NCBI GenBank assembly: GCA_963645945.1
Contig: CAVIUA010000003.1
Span: 149-64,148 of the forward strand
Length of the DNA stretch: 64,000 nucleotides
Direction of reading: 5' to 3'
Origin: a bacterium
Lineage (GTDB): Bacteria; Bacillota_I; Bacilli_A; RF39; UBA660
In this document: piece by piece, positions 7,002-24,011 of the stretch
Layout: every line of letters begins with the position of its first letter
How positions within the stretch are numbered: the stretch's first letter is position 1
Notes under the pieces: generated by a model
The model's input: only the letters and a program-made list of their open reading frames with translations
What the model was told of the DNA's origin: nothing
The model's database searches: none
Translations under genes and position numbers: made by a program

Positions 7002-8084
7002 TTAGTTTTTAGAAATATTCAGGATGATTCCAATACTTGCCATACTAACAAGAAGTGATGAACCTCCATAACTAATAAATGGCAACGTTACTCCTGTTAC
7101 AGGTATCATACCAATTACTACCATTAGATTCATTAAGGACTGGAATATTATTTGAAATATCATACCAAATGATAGGTATTTTGAAAAAGAATCTTTTGCC
7201 CTTAAAGAAATTTTTATGCCTCTGTATAATATTATGGAAAATAATCCTACTACAATAAAGGCACCTACTACGCCGAATTCTTCAGCTATAATTGAGAAGA
7301 TAAAGTCAGTTTGTGGTTCAGGTAGGTAGAAATGTTTTTGGATGGAATTTAAAAAACCTGTACCAAGAAGTCCTCCTGGTCCTATTGCATATAAACTTTG
7401 TATTATCTGAAAACCTGTACCTAGTGAATCTTCCCATGGATTAATAAAAGATGTTATGCGGTCCATTCTATATGGAGCAATTACTACTAATATTGCAATA
7501 CCTATGATACCTAAAACACCTATTCCAATAAAAAATTTCATATTTACACCTGCTATAAATAATAGTGAAATTATAGACATAACTAATATTACACCAGTAC
7601 CTAAGTCTGGTTGTAACATAATTAAAAAGAAAAATAATAAAGTAATGCCAAGGATAGGAAATACACCTTGTTTATAACTCTTTAGGAACTTATTACTATT
7701 TGAAAGATATTTACTTGTAAAAATTATCAAACCGAGTTTAGCTGCCTCACTAGGTTGTATTCCAAATGGTCCTATACCAAACCAAGATCTTGAACCATTT
7801 CTAATACTACCAATGCCTGGTATTATAACAGCAATTAATAAAATTAGACAGATTATAATTATTAAATTTGCCTTTTTATAATATACTTTATAATCTATTT
7901 TAGATACTATATACATTATAACTAAACCTAGTAAAAAAAATACTAATTGATATTTTAAATAATGAAATGAATCATTAAATTTATATTCTGACCAGATACT
8001 GGAAGCAGAATATATCATAACTATACCAAAAATAGATAAAATGATTACCGCTATTAAAAATATTTTATCTATTCTTTTTTTCAT
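7002..8084 (-). CDS. FtsW/RodA/SpoVE family (SEDS) peptidoglycan polymerase
   Basis: 360 aa polytopic protein. Motifs: RSWFGIGPFGIQPSE, PEPQTDFIF, GVTLPFISYGGSS. Confidence 0.9.
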   Translation of the reverse strand: MKKRIDKIFLIAVIILSIFGIVMIYSASSIWSEYKFNDSFHYLKYQLVFFLLGLVIMYIVSKIDYKVYYKKANLIIIICLILLIAVIIPGIGSIRNGSRSWFGIGPFGIQPSEAAKLGLIIFTSKYLSNSNKFLKSYKQGVFPILGITLLFFFLIMLQPDLGTGVILVMSIISLLFIAGVNMKFFIGIGVLGIIGIAILVVIAPYRMDRITSFINPWEDSLGTGFQIIQSLYAIGPGGLLGTGFLNSIQKHFYLPEPQTDFIFSIIAEEFGVVGAFIVVGLFSIILYRGIKISLRAKDSFSKYLSFGMIFQIIFQSLMNLMVVIGMIPVTGVTLPFISYGGSSLLVSMASIGIILNISKN

Positions 8085-8150: not shown

Positions 8151-9875
8151 TTAGATTATTTCATCAATATCATCTTTTACTTTTTTTTTTTTATGATTGT
8201 TTTTTTTGCTCTTGTAATAATTATTTTTTTGATGTTGATACTTATTTTTATTTTTTTTCTTAGGTGCATTTGTTTTATTGTTTTCAACTTTTACTTCATT
8301 GATAATTACAGGTATGTTTTCATTTTTTTCTTTAACAATTACTTTTTCCGATTCTGCAGGACTTGGTGTATTGTCTTTCAATTCAACATTTTTTACTTCT
8401 TCAGTAACAATGACAGGTTCAATTGTCTTATCTTGCTTAGGTGTATTTAATATTTCATCTATCGTTGGTGAAACATAAGACTTTACCTTTGGTATATTTA
8501 TTTCAATATTACTTGGTGTATCTACTATTTCAGGTATTGTTACTGCAGGTTCTTCTTTAACTTTTTCATTTACAATATCTTTTACTTCATTTACAATATC
8601 TTCATTATCTTCTTGAACTGATTCATTTATAGATAACATATCATTTAACTCATTTGATATATCTATATTTTCATTTTCTTTCTTTTTAAAGATACTTCCA
8701 ATAATAGCAAATTTTGATAATTTTTCTTCAATAGCTTGATTTTTGGCAGCTACTCTTTTAGCTTCTTGTTCTTCTACTTCTTTTCTGACAACTTTAAACT
8801 TATATAATAATTCATCAGAAATAATTATGAATGTACTTATATCATTATCTGTATCTTCACTATATAATATTGGCTTACCTGTTGAATCGTGAGCATCTAA
8901 TAATTCTTCAATTCTAGGTACTTCAATAATTTCATATTTACTTTCATCTATCTTTTCTCCAGACTTACTCGATACTATTGCTCTATCATATTCTCTTAAT
9001 ATACCTCTTACTGTTGATTTATATATATCTTTTTTACTTCTATTAGTTAAGAAATTATAAATAACTATATATAATAGTGCTAAACTTAGTATACCAACAA
9101 TTATACCTAGTACTAAAGCAACTGGTTTCTTTATTTGTGACATATAATTTCTTTCTAATGTACCAGAATTATTTATATCACTTGTATCAATACCTATATT
9201 TATTGTTTGTTCTGACATAGGTATCGCAATTACTAATTTACTTGTTTTATTAAAATCTTCTTTTAGTAGAGAACTTTTGCCTTCTACATCAATTGTAAAT
9301 GTTAATACTAATTTGCTGTTTACTGATAAGGCATATTCTTTTTTAAATGCATTTACATAATTATTATATTCATCGTAGTTAATGCTTATATCTTTATCTA
9401 CTCTAAAGCTTGATCCTGATATTTTTTCTTTTGTATCTTTTAATAAGACACTTGGTTTTTTATATAACACTTTGTTATTATCGTTTGGATCGGATATTAT
9501 TAAATCGGCTGTTACTTTATAATTATATGTATATTCCATTTTTTCTTCTGAATGCATTTCATAAGTAAATGTTGGTACTATATTTTTAATTATACTTGCA
9601 ATATATTGCATATCTTTATCTAGATATTGTTCTTGATAATAATTATTATCTTTTAAATATACTTTGTAATCTATATTACCTAATTCATTATATCCTATAT
9701 ATGATTCAGCTTTTGTATACATTGATCCTTTTAATACTAGAAATGTTAATCCTAACATAATTAATGTTGGTATTAACATATAAAATAGCCATCTCTTAGT
9801 AGTATATGGTTTAATCTCAGTAGGTTTTTTATCTAGTTTTGGATTTTTATTAGGATCCAAATTATTATTTTTCAT
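8151..9875 (-). CDS. DUF5305-like bitopic membrane protein with long Lys/Glu-rich C-terminal tail (fibre locus A)
   Basis: 574 aa with topology TM, ~210-aa ectodomain, TM, cytoplasmic domain. It is a clear paralog of 21021-22115 (DYKVYLKDNNYY..QYIAS..FTYE). The start lies 2 nt after the stop of the upstream peptidase gene. Confidence 0.6.
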   Translation of the reverse strand: MKNNNLDPNKNPKLDKKPTEIKPYTTKRWLFYMLIPTLIMLGLTFLVLKGSMYTKAESYIGYNELGNIDYKVYLKDNNYYQEQYLDKDMQYIASIIKNIVPTFTYEMHSEEKMEYTYNYKVTADLIISDPNDNNKVLYKKPSVLLKDTKEKISGSSFRVDKDISINYDEYNNYVNAFKKEYALSVNSKLVLTFTIDVEGKSSLLKEDFNKTSKLVIAIPMSEQTINIGIDTSDINNSGTLERNYMSQIKKPVALVLGIIVGILSLALLYIVIYNFLTNRSKKDIYKSTVRGILREYDRAIVSSKSGEKIDESKYEIIEVPRIEELLDAHDSTGKPILYSEDTDNDISTFIIISDELLYKFKVVRKEVEEQEAKRVAAKNQAIEEKLSKFAIIGSIFKKKENENIDISNELNDMLSINESVQEDNEDIVNEVKDIVNEKVKEEPAVTIPEIVDTPSNIEINIPKVKSYVSPTIDEILNTPKQDKTIEPVIVTEEVKNVELKDNTPSPAESEKVIVKEKNENIPVIINEVKVENNKTNAPKKKNKNKYQHQKNNYYKSKKNNHKKKKVKDDIDEII

Positions 9876-9877
9876 TA

Positions 9878-18703: not shown

Positions 18704-21031
18704 TTACTTTTTATAGATAGCCTCAAAATGAGTGCCATGATAAATTATTACTTTGTCACCTGGCTGATACATATTGCCATCACCAGTATTGTACCAAGCT
18801 ATAAAATTTGTTTTATTCTTTGGCTCTTTTAATTTATAATAAGTACCTTCTTCTTGCAAATAATCTTCTTTATTTACTACTTCATCATCAGATGTTGTTA
18901 CCATCCAAATCCTTTTACCAGCACTATTTTCATTTGGCTTAAGAATCATTTCATCATTTAATTGAATTTCTAACAAATAGTTTCTAAAAGTATTTAAATC
19001 TAAGTATTTAGATAATAGTTTTCCATCCCCTACCCTTAATCCTTTAAACATATAATAAGGCATAATATCCTTAAATGATGAATAATCATATAAATCTAGT
19101 TTTTCATAATCTCTATTTATCCAGTTTATATTATTACCAAATTCATATAAATTGGATAACATTACATTTCCATCTGTTGTAAGTAGTCCATTCGCAATAA
19201 TATTATAATATCTTGTTGAAGCTATAAAATAATATTCTACATCTTCATCAAAGTTTTCTATATTAGTAACAGTTACATAAGTAATATTATTATTTTCATC
19301 TAATTTAGCTATTTCTGTTCCTATTTTAAAATTATTATTATCAAGTACTGATACAAATTGATTAAGATTTTTACTGAATAAACCATGATTAGTTACAACA
19401 TTCAAAATTGTTCCATCTGAGAATGATATTTTTTTATAATTAGGATTTATTTTTCTTTTTTCAATCCATATAGGATATTCATATGTATATGATCCAGTTT
19501 CATGATTCCATACGAGTAATAAATCATCGTAAGTAATATCTTCTATGTTTTTAGTTTTTCCAGTTGCAAGAGTTATTTTTGTTCCTTTGGCTAAACATCC
19601 TGAGGATTTTGCTGAGGCAGTAATTGTTACGTCTCCTTTTATTTCATTTATTTTTATTACACCAGTTGAAGATGAATATGTATAATCAGTACCGGATGAT
19701 AATGTGTTTCCTGCCATGGTTATTGTAACAGAATCAGGAAGCGTAGTCCATTGTCCTGATGCTGCAAGTGTTGTTGAATAGCTTTGACCAAGGCTAACAG
19801 TATCTGTAGTTGTTGATTTATTATCATGTGTTAAATTTGATAGAGAAAAGGTAATGGTAAACGTCCATTTCATTGCTGTTGTTGCACTCTTTCTAGCATA
19901 TGTAGAGTCTGTTGTTGCTGATGAGGCATAGCTTTCTCCGGTGTTTTCTGCTTCGTCTATTCCATATACAACAGCATAATAACTTCCTTCACTTTTATTT
20001 GTAAATCTATAAGTTGTATCTGAACTATTAGTATGAGCTTCTTCTATTAAATTGCCAGATGAATCATATAATAATATGACATAATCTGTAACAGGTGAAG
20101 CAGTGCTTGCATCATTATTAGTCCATGTAACATCAAATGTTCCATTGGTATTGTTAATATCTAATGATACTGGTCCAATTAAAGGAGGTTCATTATCTTC
20201 TTCATATCCAGTTGTTACATTTGTAGTTATTGCTAGGTTATCAAATGTAAAACTAGTTGTATCATGTTGAAGATAAATTTTCATATCATATTTTGTTTTA
20301 TAATAATTAATATTGGTTTTTTTAGAAACATATACATTTACTTCTTCTTGACTATTTGCTTTTATAGTTAAATTACCTAAAGCATTGCCAGATGAATCTG
20401 TTAAATCAAATTTAGTACTATCTGTTGTTAGTTGATAGGTAACATCTGTATCACCCGAATTTGCAATTTTTATTGTTATAGGTTTTCTTTCAACATTGGT
20501 TAGGTTAACGCTTTCCGTTATTAAATCGGCAGCTACTTTACCTGCATCATCAAAATTAAATGTCATATTTAAATCATAATCTCCAGAGGTTGCTGAATTA
20601 ATGTACCGATATGTTAATTCAAACGTTACACTTTCCCCTGGTAAAAGATATGATCCAGCAGTTAAATTTGATATTTCATAACTTATTATATTTTTTGTTG
20701 TATCTGTTACATTAAATGTTTCACCAGTGTACTTTTGTACTGAATCTGTACCATTTGAAATAGTAACACTATATGTAATAAATGATACTTCAGATGAGGA
20801 AAAAGTTGTTGATACATTAGTAGTTAGTGAAGAATATTCCGGTACTTTAGTCATGTTAACACCATTGGAATCCGTTGAATAAAATTCACTTATAAATAAT
20901 TCATTTAATTTTGTTGAAGAAACACTTCCTGAAACTGATATTGTTGATTGCATAGCAGCATATCCTATATTAAGTAAAAAAAGTAGTAAAAATAAAGATA
21001 TTGCTATGGCATTTTTTTTCTTAATCTTCAT
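18704..21031 (-). CDS. large secreted fibre-associated protein: subunit-like N-terminus, FN3-like region, C-terminal Hint (intein-like) domain plus 154-aa tail
   Basis: 775 aa. Signal/TM then NIGYAAMQSTISVSGSV. FN3-like block (PPLIGPVSLD..WTNNDAS..YYAVVYGIDEAEN). Hint signature from Cys479 (SG-CLAKGTKITLATGKTKNIEDITYDDLLLVW ... VVTNHGLF ... NIIANG). The tail ends in a Listeria/Bacteroides-repeat-like FIAWYNTGDG..FEAIY. Confidence 0.7.
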   Translation of the reverse strand: MKIKKKNAIAISLFLLLFLLNIGYAAMQSTISVSGSVSSTKLNELFISEFYSTDSNGVNMTKVPEYSSLTTNVSTTFSSSEVSFITYSVTISNGTDSVQKYTGETFNVTDTTKNIISYEISNLTAGSYLLPGESVTFELTYRYINSATSGDYDLNMTFNFDDAGKVAADLITESVNLTNVERKPITIKIANSGDTDVTYQLTTDSTKFDLTDSSGNALGNLTIKANSQEEVNVYVSKKTNINYYKTKYDMKIYLQHDTTSFTFDNLAITTNVTTGYEEDNEPPLIGPVSLDINNTNGTFDVTWTNNDASTASPVTDYVILLYDSSGNLIEEAHTNSSDTTYRFTNKSEGSYYAVVYGIDEAENTGESYASSATTDSTYARKSATTAMKWTFTITFSLSNLTHDNKSTTTDTVSLGQSYSTTLAASGQWTTLPDSVTITMAGNTLSSGTDYTYSSSTGVIKINEIKGDVTITASAKSSGCLAKGTKITLATGKTKNIEDITYDDLLLVWNHETGSYTYEYPIWIEKRKINPNYKKISFSDGTILNVVTNHGLFSKNLNQFVSVLDNNNFKIGTEIAKLDENNNITYVTVTNIENFDEDVEYYFIASTRYYNIIANGLLTTDGNVMLSNLYEFGNNINWINRDYEKLDLYDYSSFKDIMPYYMFKGLRVGDGKLLSKYLDLNTFRNYLLEIQLNDEMILKPNENSAGKRIWMVTTSDDEVVNKEDYLQEEGTYYKLKEPKNKTNFIAWYNTGDGNMYQPGDKVIIYHGTHFEAIYKK

Positions 21032-22115
21032 TTTTACCTTCTTCTTTCATAATTCTATTCATTGAATAATAGTATATATATACTAAACCTGAGTTAGTAG
21101 GTACAATAAATGCACTCTTTGTTTTACTTGGTTCTTGACAGAATAATATTGGTGATCCTGATGAGTTTCTTATTTCGAATAAATCTTCAAATTCTTCCAC
21201 TAATACTATTTGGAATTTATTATAACTTAGTTCTGACTGTATTTTTGAGATATATTGACCATAGTTATTAAAGATATCTTTTAATCCTTTATTGTAAATA
21301 GTATAACAGTTCTTAGTCTTTTTAGCATAAATAGTCGTTCTTACAGTTAATACAACAGCTACTATTATTAATATTATACCTAGTGTAAATAGTCTTACAT
21401 CCATGTAACTTGTATCTACACATTCTATTAATTTATCTGTTCCATTATTTAATACATAATTCATATCAACATTAACAGTATTTGTTGTTAAAGGCATGGA
21501 CATAGATATAACCGCATCATCCTTTATATTAGGTTCATATCCTTCACAATTTCCTTTTATACCGATGTGTAATTTTAATGTTAATTTACTATTTGTTCCT
21601 GTTAGATTATATCTTTTAATAAATGCACTTGCTATTGTATTATAGTAGTTATAATCTAAATTAACTGTTTTATTTATTGTAAATGAATTATTTATTGTAC
21701 TTGTTACTGTTTGTTTTGGTAATACAGTATCTACTTTTTGATATAGTTTTTTGTCATTATTATCTAATATATCTAATGTTGATTCTATATAATAATAATA
21801 TGAATAATCTATATCTTCTTTAATAGATAATTCGTATGTAAAGTTTGCTTCTATGTAATTAATTAAGCTTGCTATATACTGATTTCCTTTTCCTAAATAT
21901 GGACCAAAGTAATCATTATCTTTTAAGTATACTTTGTAATCTAAATCACTTTTTTCGTCGTAATGTAAATAATAATTTTTATCTTGATTAAATGAGGCAT
22001 ATAAACTGAATATTGAAGAAACAAATAGTACAGCAATTATAACTATTGATAATTTTATTATTTTGTTTCTTTTTTTTGTTTCTTTGATAATTTTATCAAT
22101 TTGTTTCTTATTCAT
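21021..22115 (-). CDS. DUF5305-like bitopic membrane protein (fibre locus B)
   Basis: 364 aa, paralog of 8151-9875 with the same TM-ectodomain-TM-cytoplasmic layout. Its 3' end overlaps the 775-aa gene start by 11 nt. Confidence 0.6.
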   Translation of the reverse strand: MNKKQIDKIIKETKKRNKIIKLSIVIIAVLFVSSIFSLYASFNQDKNYYLHYDEKSDLDYKVYLKDNDYFGPYLGKGNQYIASLINYIEANFTYELSIKEDIDYSYYYYIESTLDILDNNDKKLYQKVDTVLPKQTVTSTINNSFTINKTVNLDYNYYNTIASAFIKRYNLTGTNSKLTLKLHIGIKGNCEGYEPNIKDDAVISMSMPLTTNTVNVDMNYVLNNGTDKLIECVDTSYMDVRLFTLGIILIIVAVVLTVRTTIYAKKTKNCYTIYNKGLKDIFNNYGQYISKIQSELSYNKFQIVLVEEFEDLFEIRNSSGSPILFCQEPSKTKSAFIVPTNSGLVYIYYYSMNRIMKEEGKNED

Positions 22116-22131
22116 GTTATACCTCCTTTAC

Positions 22132-23265
22132 TTAATTATTAAATAATGATCTAAACCAGATTGCTGGGAATCCTATATATTTAATTCTTTTATGTATTAC
22201 TCCTACAATGTTTTCTTTATAAACGTAACCAGAGTCTGCATATTTATTGTTATCTCCTTTTGTTACATATACGTATTCATCATTAAATACTCCTATTTCT
22301 GTAATTCTATGGATTACATTTTTATCTTTCTTAGCATAAATTATGATATCTCCTATATCCAATTCTTGATCTTTATACTTTTCAAATATAACAGCATCTC
22401 CATAATTTATTGTTCCTGTCATGGAACCTGACCCTATTGCCATAATTCCATATCTAAATGCACAAGATACAAGAGCCGTTGCTAAAGATATGATTATTAA
22501 CAAGATTGTTGTACTTATGCTTAGGCCTTTCTTTTTGCTTTTCCTCATTACTTTTTCAAATTCTACTCTATCAAACATATATGACATTGTAAGATATATT
22601 ATTAATGGTAATGTTATTTTAAATACTGATTTAATTAGAAGATTCATGTTAGGAATTACTGGTATAAAATAATAACTTATTATTGTTATAATTCTATATA
22701 CTGTAATTGCTTTATATCCATATTTAACTGACATTTTGTTATATACTACGTTGTTTACTATACTTGGAAATAGAACTGTACCAAGAAATTCAATTGTTGA
22801 ATCAAGACTTCTTAAGTTTACTGTTGAGCCAAAAATATTTACATCTACTATTACAAAAAAGATTATTGTTAGTAGTTTAAATATTTTTGTATTTCCTTTA
22901 TTTATAGTGAACTGATATCGTAAGAATTCTTGAATTATTATTATTATTGATAATGGTAATACTATTACAAGTATTATGTGTCCACTCATTGGTAAGGAGT
23001 TTTTTGAAAAGTCTGTTAATAAACCAATTACATAATGAATACTTACTTGTATTACTCCAATAAGTGCCATCGTTCCTAGTATTGTATTTTTATTAAATAT
23101 ATTACATTGTCTATATTTAAATATTTTTTTTGATAGTATTAATAGAACGATAAATATTAGTGCTAATTCTATTTTACTATTCATATTTAGCACAAGAAGA
23201 TTAAGAAGGAAAAATATTATGAGGATTGCTAAGTAATAATTTGCTAACTTACGTCTTTTTATCAT
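22132..23265 (-). CDS. polytopic membrane domain fused to SipW-like (S26B) signal peptidase I
   Basis: 377 aa with GSGSM, VIHRI and KGDNN boxes at the C-terminus. N-terminal multi-TM region shares E(I/F)LRY(E/Q), YG, YR(L/I)I and P(I/V)IPN(I/M)N motifs with 9878-11011. Confidence 0.8.
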   Translation of the reverse strand: MIKRRKLANYYLAILIIFFLLNLLVLNMNSKIELALIFIVLLILSKKIFKYRQCNIFNKNTILGTMALIGVIQVSIHYVIGLLTDFSKNSLPMSGHIILVIVLPLSIIIIIQEFLRYQFTINKGNTKIFKLLTIIFFVIVDVNIFGSTVNLRSLDSTIEFLGTVLFPSIVNNVVYNKMSVKYGYKAITVYRIITIISYYFIPVIPNMNLLIKSVFKITLPLIIYLTMSYMFDRVEFEKVMRKSKKKGLSISTTILLIIISLATALVSCAFRYGIMAIGSGSMTGTINYGDAVIFEKYKDQELDIGDIIIYAKKDKNVIHRITEIGVFNDEYVYVTKGDNNKYADSGYVYKENIVGVIHKRIKYIGFPAIWFRSLFNN

Positions 23266-23304
23266 AGTCTTTCCTCCTTAACTATTTTCTACTAAATATT
23301 AAGT

Positions 23305-23865
23305 TTATTCAATAGCATCACCAGTAGCAGTTACTGTAAATGTTGCTTCAGTTTTAGCTTTTTCTTGATCATTAAAAGCTTTTATTAATTCAACTCTTAC
23401 AGTTACTGTTGTTGTTCCTTCAGGAGCAACGCTTGTTGCATCATCTGCCATTGTAGTAGTAACTTTATAATGTTCAGAATCAGTTATAGCTGATGATACT
23501 TCTGCTGTAATTTTAGCCTTTAGGTCTGTACTTTTATTAATTATTTTAAAAGTTGCTTCTCCATATTCACCAACGTACTTTAAATTAGAAACTTTAATTT
23601 CTGCTACATCTACACTTGTATAACTTGCTTCTACTTTTGTTGGATTTTCAGCATCTGTATTTACTTTTGATTTTGTTGTTCCTGTGTTACTAATGATATC
23701 GCTATTTATATTTGTAAACTGAATATCAAAATCAGTAGTTGCTGTTGCATGACCATTGATTGTTACTTTATCAGTACTTGTTGCTGCATAACCTATACCA
23801 ATAGTTACAAGTAGTAATAGTACTAAGATAAGAAGTCCTTTATTTTTCTTTTTCACTTTTTTCAC
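23305..23865 (-). CDS. secreted fibre-subunit-like protein (divergent, Cys-free)
   Basis: 186 aa with a basic N-terminus and TM then IGIGYAATSTDKVTINGHATAT. The GTG at 23865 abuts AGGAGG; the GTG at 23856 (8-nt spacing) is the more likely start. Confidence 0.5.
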   Translation of the reverse strand: MKKVKKKNKGLLILVLLLLVTIGIGYAATSTDKVTINGHATATTDFDIQFTNINSDIISNTGTTKSKVNTDAENPTKVEASYTSVDVAEIKVSNLKYVGEYGEATFKIINKSTDLKAKITAEVSSAITDSEHYKVTTTMADDATSVAPEGTTTVTVRVELIKAFNDQEKAKTEATFTVTATGDAIE

Positions 23866-23968: not shown

Positions 23969-24002
23969 CAAAAAAAAACAACCTACATTTTGAGGTAGGT
24001 TG
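23969..24002 (-). terminator. rho-independent terminator downstream of the LuxR-type gene
   Basis: Stem CAACCTAC/GTAGGTTG (23979-23986 / 23995-24002) with an 8-nt loop, followed on the minus strand by a T9 run. Confidence 0.7.
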
Positions 24003-24011
24003 TTAAAAATT

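Follow-up and report, generated by a model that had tools for sequence, protein, structure and literature searches.

A probable TasA-superfamily fibre operon with a Hint-tailed minor subunit in an uncultured low-GC gut bacterium

Here, we describe locus B, a four-gene operon in a stretch of 64,000 nucleotides (nt) from contig CAVIUA010000003.1 of assembly GCA_963645945.1. This whole stretch is called the window below, and all positions count from its first letter. Locus B encodes, in order, a small secreted protein of 186 amino acids (aa), a 377-aa signal peptidase fusion, a 364-aa DUF5305 protein, and a large multidomain protein of 775 aa. We consider it probable that this is a TasA-superfamily (AbpX-like) donor-strand fibre operon whose minor subunit carries a Hint (Hedgehog/intein) tail, and that its owner is an uncultured low-GC gut bacterium of the Bacilli or "Tenericutes" type. 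The gene order and its conservation, the homology between the head of the 775-aa protein and the small subunits, the Hint fold, and the conserved catalytic Cys and His are directly supported. The locus type itself has already been described, in a January 2026 preprint (bioRxiv 10.64898/2026.01.04.697558); a Hint-tailed minor subunit is not described for such fibres. No other part of the 775-aa protein is as conserved or as informative as the cassette that contains the Hint domain.

The operon, its machinery and its small subunit

The initial annotation of this DNA gave the gene order as 186, 377, 364, and 775 aa, with an 11-nt overlap between the last two genes. The positions of the open reading frames (ORFs) agree with it exactly (Table 1): the 364-aa and 775-aa genes share 21021-21031, and the peptidase gene starts 39 nt downstream of the 186-aa subunit gene.

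Table 1. Features of locus B, of the 775-aa protein (residue numbers in the first column), and of the surrounding DNA, with window positions
Feature	Position	Strand	Basis or content
Gene, 186-aa small (presumed major) fibre subunit	23305-23865	minus	ORF call
Gene, 377-aa polytopic signal peptidase I fusion	22132-23265	minus	ORF call and family matches
Gene, 364-aa DUF5305 protein	21021-22115	minus	ORF call and PF17231
Gene, 775-aa putative minor subunit	18704-21031	minus	ORF call
Signal peptide, residues 1-26	20954-21031	minus	G-[YF]-A motif common to small subunits
Donor-strand-like segment QSTISVSGSVSS and pilin-like domain D1, residues 27-172	20516-20953	minus	Homology to small subunits
Stalk of three Ig-like/FN3 domains, residues 173-478 (D2 173-278, FN3 279-380, D4 381-478)	19598-20515	minus	Foldseek, model secondary structure
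Hint domain (Hedgehog/intein, BIL-like), residues 479-632	19136-19597	minus	Foldseek, conservation
Cys479 codon	19595-19597	minus	
Helical extension (residues 633-700) and small beta domain (residues 701-775)	18707-19135	minus	Conservation, model
Terminator-like hairpin	23977-24004		Between the operon and the upstream LuxR/GerE-type gene
464-aa polytopic membrane protein with C-terminal LuxR/GerE helix-turn-helix	24012-25406	minus	GerE 3.1e-13, about 11 hydrophobic segments
Locus A, paralogous module	8151-12314	minus	Small subunits of 195 and 203 aa, 389-aa peptidase fusion, 574-aa DUF5305 protein

The peptidase fusion and the DUF5305-like protein had also been named correctly. The 377-aa protein begins with about eight hydrophobic helices (by a crude hydropathy scan) and continues as an archaeal/endoplasmic reticulum-type (SipW-like) signal peptidase I domain. 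It contains the motifs GSGSM, HRI, and GDNN, and its family matches are TIGR02228 (4e-23; 82 bits against a cut-off of 51.85), the SipW model (2.2e-16), and Peptidase_S26 (4e-6). The peptidases associated with AbpX are reported to have ten transmembrane helices (bioRxiv 10.64898/2026.01.04.697558). The 364-aa protein matches DUF5305 (PF17231, 2.2e-11; a further PF17231 match stands at 1.7e-23) and has two transmembrane segments, at residues 19-37 and 240-258. It is proposed to act as an accessory partner of the peptidase, in the role put forward for such proteins in the AbpX and Tafi papers.

Relatives of the 775-aa protein are widespread. About 30 full-length ones are present in the protein collection, none of them named, and 113 species-level genomes encode a relative; almost all of these genomes are uncultured gut or rumen metagenome-assembled genomes labelled as Bacilli, Tenericutes, Mycoplasmatota, or Erysipelotrichaceae. 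We fetched 80 of the relatives' loci, called their ORFs, and searched them with the proteins of the window. The small subunit, the peptidase, the DUF5305 protein, and the big protein lie on one strand in 47 of the 80, and the module lies divergently upstream in 7 more, so that the four-gene arrangement is not a matter of chance. A further five loci are cut by contig ends, and about 11 could not be judged; another five have ample flanking sequence and no module, four of these being Saccharibacteria-labelled bins in which the big protein has a different head. In most loci, the big gene begins where the DUF5305 gene stops, either with an overlap or within about 20 nt.

In the 186-aa subunit, a hydrophobic signal segment and a G-Y-A motif of the cleavage type are followed by a strand-like segment, VTINGHATA, and a beta-sandwich core. 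Its AlphaFold2 (AF2) model has an all-beta core and a mean predicted local distance difference test (pLDDT) score of 82.8. Searches of Pfam, NCBIfam, and a large protein collection gave no family or name for the small subunits, and the Pfam family Peptidase_M73 had no significant match among them (1 of 48 sequences at E 0.003). A family profile built from these 48 sequences did find a relative in the PDB: the match to AbpX (9sj2_C, E 9.5e-4) covers 144 of 183 profile positions, which is nearly the whole mature domain, and is followed by 9rhp_A (E 0.019), the next unrelated match being at E 1.5. By hhalign, the same profile scores 65-70% against AbpX. We regard membership of the small subunits among the AbpX-type fibre subunits as moderately supported, the support being moderate by sequence and strong by context.

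The residues around the cleavage site deserve a closer look. The family consensus is G-F-A/A-[YF]-x-Q-T-L-N-I-N-G, where the slash marks cleavage, and the residue at the clamp position just after the cleavage site is Phe in the 203-aa subunit of locus A, Thr in the 186-aa subunit, and Met in the 775-aa protein. We take the cleavage-site context of TasA to resemble that found here, with a small residue, an aromatic residue, and then a beta strand. In AbpX, W2 is the aromatic clamp (bioRxiv 10.64898/2026.01.04.697558).

Three known systems invite comparison at this level. TasA-superfamily fibres, among them AbpX and the haloarchaeal Tafi, assemble by donor-strand complementation. The AbpX loci of archaea and Bacillota contain a ten-helix signal peptidase I, a two-helix DUF5305 protein, minor subunits, and "tip" or "anchor" proteins that have a pilin head. 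In bacteria, the accessory proteins carry an SLH or LPXTG anchor at their end, and sortases are encoded close by (bioRxiv 10.64898/2026.01.04.697558). Locus B shares with the AbpX-like loci (for example, that of Pyrodictium abyssi AbpX) the small secreted beta-sandwich subunit, the adjacent TIGR02228-type many-helix peptidase, the DUF5305 protein, the extra pilin-headed protein, and, as is occasionally seen in such loci, a possible regulator. It differs from them in that its large protein ends in a Hint cassette in place of SLH or LPXTG, and the sequence similarity between AbpX and the small subunits of the window is just moderate. The words intein and Hint do not occur in the AbpX preprint (bioRxiv 10.64898/2026.01.04.697558).

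The tapA-sipW-tasA operon of Bacillus subtilis likewise combines a fibre subunit, a dedicated SipW-type peptidase, and an accessory or minor protein. Unlike locus B, it has no DUF5305 protein, its SipW is without a polytopic N-terminal domain, and TapA is without a Hint domain. Haloarchaeal Tat-fimbriae (TafA/E, with TafD as the peptidase and TafG as the DUF5305 protein) share the pairing of peptidase and DUF5305 protein, the small strand-donating subunits, and the variable larger partners; their subunits, in contrast, are Tat-exported and belong to different families, and no Hint domain is reported for them.

The 775-aa protein, from pilin-like head to Hint cassette

The 775-aa protein begins with MKIKKKNAIAISLFLLLFLLNIGYAAMQSTISVSGSV, and the AF2 model of its full length has a mean pLDDT of 87.1. 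The initial annotation had made it a family member of the small subunits on the strength of its N-terminus, and this assignment was borne out by profile comparison. Both families have the G-[YF]-A motif followed by an LxIxG strand, and G23, A25, G35, and N93 are invariant in the big-protein family. Aligned with hhalign, the small-subunit family scores 95.7% against D1 (E 1e-8, 118 columns), and when the signal peptide and first strand are removed the score is still 86-88% (E ~4e-6). As controls, the same small-subunit profile was compared with the other five domains of the protein, which have a similar composition; four of the five scored below 5% and the fifth below 10%. In the monomer model, the pLDDT is below 50 for residues 29-39 and 84-92 for the core of D1. 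A first strand modelled with such low confidence beside a well-modelled core is the one indirect sign of polymerisation by donor-strand complementation.

Some variants are longer, at about 1,045-1,135 aa, and have an additional pilin-like domain at the N-terminus (loci L048:8600-11932, L062:8320-11526, and L052:135-3482; proteins P0023, P0026, and P0029). This extra domain scores 98.2% by hhalign against the small subunits and has the canonical TasA-like A-F-S-D start, and the donor-strand-like segment of D1 becomes internal in these proteins.

For the part that follows the head, about 450 aa of beta domains with an FN3-like module had been claimed. The FN3 module stands, since family-profile residues 295-364 match titin FN3 domains (E 3.9e-9), and the stalk as a whole has Foldseek matches to proteins with tandem Ig/FN3 domains (WxLIP, Caf1M, RbmA, and titin). 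What had been overlooked is the last 300 residues, that is, the Hint cassette.

A layout with a specialised terminal subunit had also been suggested, by analogy with the tip adhesins of chaperone-usher and sortase pili. Such pili do share with locus B the combination of a bulk subunit with one large, rare, multidomain family member per operon, and a minor decorated member as the last gene fits the AbpX loci; "tip adhesin" is one of several placements that the protein could have. The analogy itself did not hold. The layout is the opposite of that of chaperone-usher tip adhesins, as the 775-aa protein keeps its donor strand and has its extra domains C-terminal to the pilin domain. No sortase, usher, or chaperone domain was found in the 17 proteins in and around loci A and B that were scanned with Pfam and NCBIfam, and no LPXTG-like motif is present in the 775-aa protein or in any ORF of the window. 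A chaperone-usher or sortase system was rejected for the locus, the defining genes being missing from the proteins scanned and the motif from the window.

The Hint domain is recognizable by structure. In Foldseek, residues 479-632 match BIL2 (6y75/6tmm) with TMt 0.79-0.80, a root-mean-square deviation (rmsd) of 2.8 Å, 21% identity, and probability 1.00, and the Hint region matches the Mtu RecA mini-intein (3ifj) with TMt 0.86, rmsd 1.8 Å, and probability 1.00. A single-sequence search of the PDB with the 775-aa protein gave just a marginal intein match. Conservation was assessed over 70 species-level homologues. Cys479 and T618 are present in all 70 and His549, in block B, in at least 95%; 32 of the 154 columns of the domain are at least 90% conserved. 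The mean frequency of the top residue is 0.64 for Hint, which makes it the most conserved domain, against 0.40-0.48 for D1-D4. In the extension, W637, P658, and R666 are near-invariant, with model helices at 659-688, and the beta domain has model strands within 707-773.

The domain ends in T618-T619-D620 followed mostly by Gly. As it lacks both a terminal His-Asn and a +1 nucleophile, we do not expect it to splice, and the reading as a true intein was rejected. Judged from the residues that are kept, the conserved chemistry is expected to be that of Hedgehog, in which an N-S acyl shift takes place at the N-terminal junction, with self-cleavage or transfer as its outcome.

The likeness to the C-terminal domain of Hedgehog goes further: in both, Hint is C-terminal and has Cys at position 1, the block B His, and no C-terminal Asn; a conserved, mostly helical extension follows it; and the product is (or here would be) an N-terminal part with a modified C-terminus. 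The cassette differs in being bacterial, in having an extra beta domain after the extension, and in showing no detectable specific sequence relationship to Hedgehog. The sterol-recognition region of Hedgehog is required for transfer and dispensable for cleavage. The best compact structural match to residues 479-632 is BIL2 of the Tetrahymena BUBL locus (6Y75/6TMM), which forms an isopeptide bond to lysines from a thioester, with no need for ATP. The cassette differs from BIL2 in that the latter is a cytoplasmic domain of a eukaryote, has ubiquitin-like domains as its neighbours, and still has its C-terminal Asn. Sortase chemistry also runs through a thioester intermediate.

The cassette is by no means confined to proteins such as this one. 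An exhaustive search with residues 470-700 matched 3,040 clusters at E <=1e-3 and 1,827 at E <=1e-10, and we assessed the composition of the best 146. Among these, the cassette lies at the extreme C-terminus of nearly all full-length proteins (it lies mid-protein in P0201), and the heads include at least 66 of the TasA/AbpX type, at least 10 that are type IV pilin-like (KGFTLVE), and a few lipoproteins. Several cassette proteins are very large, with DUF285, Flg_new, or BspA-type leucine-rich repeats. Unrelated surface proteins, too, close with Hint, the extension, and the beta domain as a set; in more distant relatives, which have Kelch or Flg_new repeats, the similarity is confined to the preceding Ig domain, Hint, and the extension, and the protein stops right after the extension. 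Since it is found C-terminally on such diverse surface and filament heads, the cassette is a portable C-terminal module of surface and filament proteins, and, going by the sequences of those heads, it is one that decorates subunits of two unrelated filament systems.

Some individual proteins from these searches are worth recording. Type IV pilin-like N-termini, such as MNKKGFTLVELLAV, occur in P0082, P0085, P0089, P0098, P0147, P0156, P0193, P0197, P0154, and P0207. In P0109 (560 aa), the N-terminus, IDYKVYLKPNDFF, is DUF5305-like and residues 255-460 match Hint; this protein is a genuine fusion, or else two adjacent genes were merged in error during assembly or gene calling. In the Saccharibacteria-labelled bins (L066:8933-12205, L068:8894-12181, L078:8930-12190, and L079:8924-12202), proteins of about 1,090 aa carry the same stalk and Hint cassette. 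Their head differs, with a signal peptide that reads ...VFA/TIDPNNYS..., and no peptidase/DUF5305 module lies within about 9 kb upstream. Either mis-binning or an independent use of the cassette could lie behind these cases.

Bacterial Hint domains often precede C-terminal toxin domains in secreted proteins, and one may ask whether, in the manner of MafB-type and PT-HINT proteins, the Hint domain here might release an effector or toxin made up of the last 140 residues. We think this highly improbable. The C-terminal region is conserved together with Hint across families and is not polymorphic, there is no terminal His-Asn for cleavage on that side, and the distant relatives stop right after the helical extension. 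In addition, the DUF3137 gene that lies downstream of the 775-aa gene is missing from the other loci, including that of the 92% relative L001, so that there is no conserved candidate for an immunity gene.

Counter-evidence and a proposed mechanism

Several results weigh against the reading of locus B as an AbpX-like operon with a Hint-tailed subunit, and they should be considered together. The AbpX link consists of one moderate sequence match plus genomic context. Foldseek with the 186-aa model returned only generic beta sandwiches in its top 50 (TM <=~0.3) and no TasA, AbpA, or AbpX, with a model that included the signal peptide and a library copy that was perhaps without AbpX. BLASTP of the 775-aa protein against the 203-aa and 186-aa subunits was not significant (E 0.13 and 1.2) and matched only at the level of the signal peptide and first strand, which is why profile comparison was needed for the head homology. 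Compared directly, D1 has no similarity to AbpX, so the link between the two is a transitive one, through the small subunits.

On the side of the cassette, the Pfam Hint-clan scores are below their gathering thresholds (Intein_splicing 24 bits against 35.8; Hint 18.2 against 29.7). Hom_end_hint and Hint nevertheless recur in 13 and 11 of 28 members, respectively, every one below threshold, and such recurring matches indicate a divergent Hint subtype. The residue before Cys479 is variable, and Asp620 at the end of Hint could in principle also permit C-terminal cleavage.

Two alternatives draw on these points. The first is that the 775-aa protein is only co-processed by the same peptidase and is not a fibre subunit at all; it would be a free or separately attached adhesin, which its Hint tail matures or sheds. 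Such an adhesin could well be similar to the subunits in signal peptide and first strand alone and lack a direct match between D1 and AbpX, and the roughly five well-flanked loci (mostly in Saccharibacteria-labelled bins) that have the stalk and Hint, a different head, and no module nearby would be in keeping with it. We consider it rather unlikely. The homology of the D1 core survives the removal of exactly those N-terminal parts, far above the controls; the tight synteny and the start/stop overlap with the module are conserved; and the longer variants gain a second domain of the pilin-like kind.

The second is that the Hint domain is degenerate, cleaves nothing, and has just a structural or binding role where the stalk ends. 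The sub-threshold Pfam scores, the variable -1 residue, and the lack of both a canonical TxxH threonine and a terminal His-Asn would all suit such a domain. Against this, Cys479 and His549 are kept across the species-level homologues, Hint is better conserved than any of the other, quickly diverging domains, and the model superposes on active Hint domains (rmsd 1.8-2.8 Å); degeneration, therefore, strikes us as quite improbable.

We return, then, to a fibre operon with a processed minor subunit, for which polymerisation, cleavage, transfer, and the position of the 775-aa protein in the fibre are steps that we infer. The 186-aa protein would be the bulk fibre subunit, and the polytopic SipW-type peptidase with its DUF5305 partner would cut the signal peptides after G-[YF]-A. 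The 775-aa protein would be a minor subunit, and translational coupling of its gene to that of the DUF5305 protein would set its production at machinery-like levels. Its pilin head (residues 27-172) would insert it into the fibre via strand complementation. After export, Hint would turn the peptide bond before Cys479 into a thioester and detach itself (478/479), and the product would be a pilin-plus-stalk fragment of about 450 aa that sits on the fibre with an activated C-terminus. That C-terminus may then be hydrolysed, as maturation or shedding, or be passed to an acceptor nucleophile.

We slightly favour transfer to an acceptor over hydrolysis, because a conserved extension always accompanies Hint. 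Transfer rather than hydrolysis is documented for BIL2, for Hedgehog SRR/ARR, and for BIL domains, and the acceptor precedents are cholesterol in Hedgehog and lysine in the ciliate BIL2.

A cell-wall anchor that replaces LPXTG or SLH was the role first favoured for the cassette. It was downgraded, as the cassette also ends type IV pilin-like proteins and lipoproteins. Its presence on proteins that are already attached N-terminally argues for a function at the free, distal end and not for an anchor. More tentatively, and as a suggestion that may well turn out to be wrong, the cassette might be a self-contained coupling device, independent of ATP and of sortase, that hands the C-terminal thioester of the stalk to a specific acceptor and so links the fibre covalently to something else. 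The acceptor could be an amine or hydroxyl of the envelope, the matrix, or a target surface, or a lysine of another subunit.

Surroundings of the locus and significance

Upstream of the operon, beyond the hairpin listed in Table 1, lies the gene for the 464-aa membrane protein, which is kept upstream of the module in two of the relatives' loci (L003 and L006) and is a possible candidate for a membrane-bound regulator of the operon. A promoter scan found no excess over the shuffled expectation.

The second fibre module of the window, locus A, is without a large-subunit gene. Over their full lengths, the peptidases of the two loci are 29.5% identical and the DUF5305 proteins 30.5%. The DUF5305 protein of locus A (8151-9875, minus strand, 574 aa) ends in some 200 aa that are rich in Lys, Glu, and Asn and have no counterpart in its 364-aa paralogue. 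Between both loci, at 13396-16734 (minus strand), is the gene for a 1,112-aa protein, which lacks a signal peptide and matches no Pfam or NCBIfam family; L001 has a homologue of 1,335 aa.

The stretch downstream of the 775-aa gene, at 16938-18465 (minus strand), contains the DUF3137 gene (334 aa) and a gene for 143 aa. Neither is present in the close relative L001, where the big gene directly adjoins the counterpart of the 1,112-aa gene, and this points to a recent insertion or deletion. Across the window (1-64000), the long ORFs are nearly all on the minus strand, the GC content is 22-31%, and the GC skew is negative throughout. Together, these features would suit a single replichore of a genome that is small and low in GC. 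The presence of an FtsW/RodA gene (7002-8084) suggests that peptidoglycan is made.

What does this mean for the wider community of those who work on surface fibres? TasA-superfamily fibres are emerging as a cross-domain biofilm scaffold, and the finding bears on their termination, anchoring, and attachment. A pilin-headed subunit with a Hint-processed C-terminus would be a new type of accessory subunit, placed where LPXTG or SLH anchors sit in the published loci, and it would give bacterial Hint domains a concrete extracellular role besides toxin release. Members of the family are common among the Bacilli of the human gut and the rumen that are without cultured representatives. If the cassette does prove to be a coupling device, it would provide uncultured gut Bacilli with a general "reactive end" that serves two unrelated filament systems, and would be a bacterial counterpart of Hedgehog lipidation or BIL2 conjugation.

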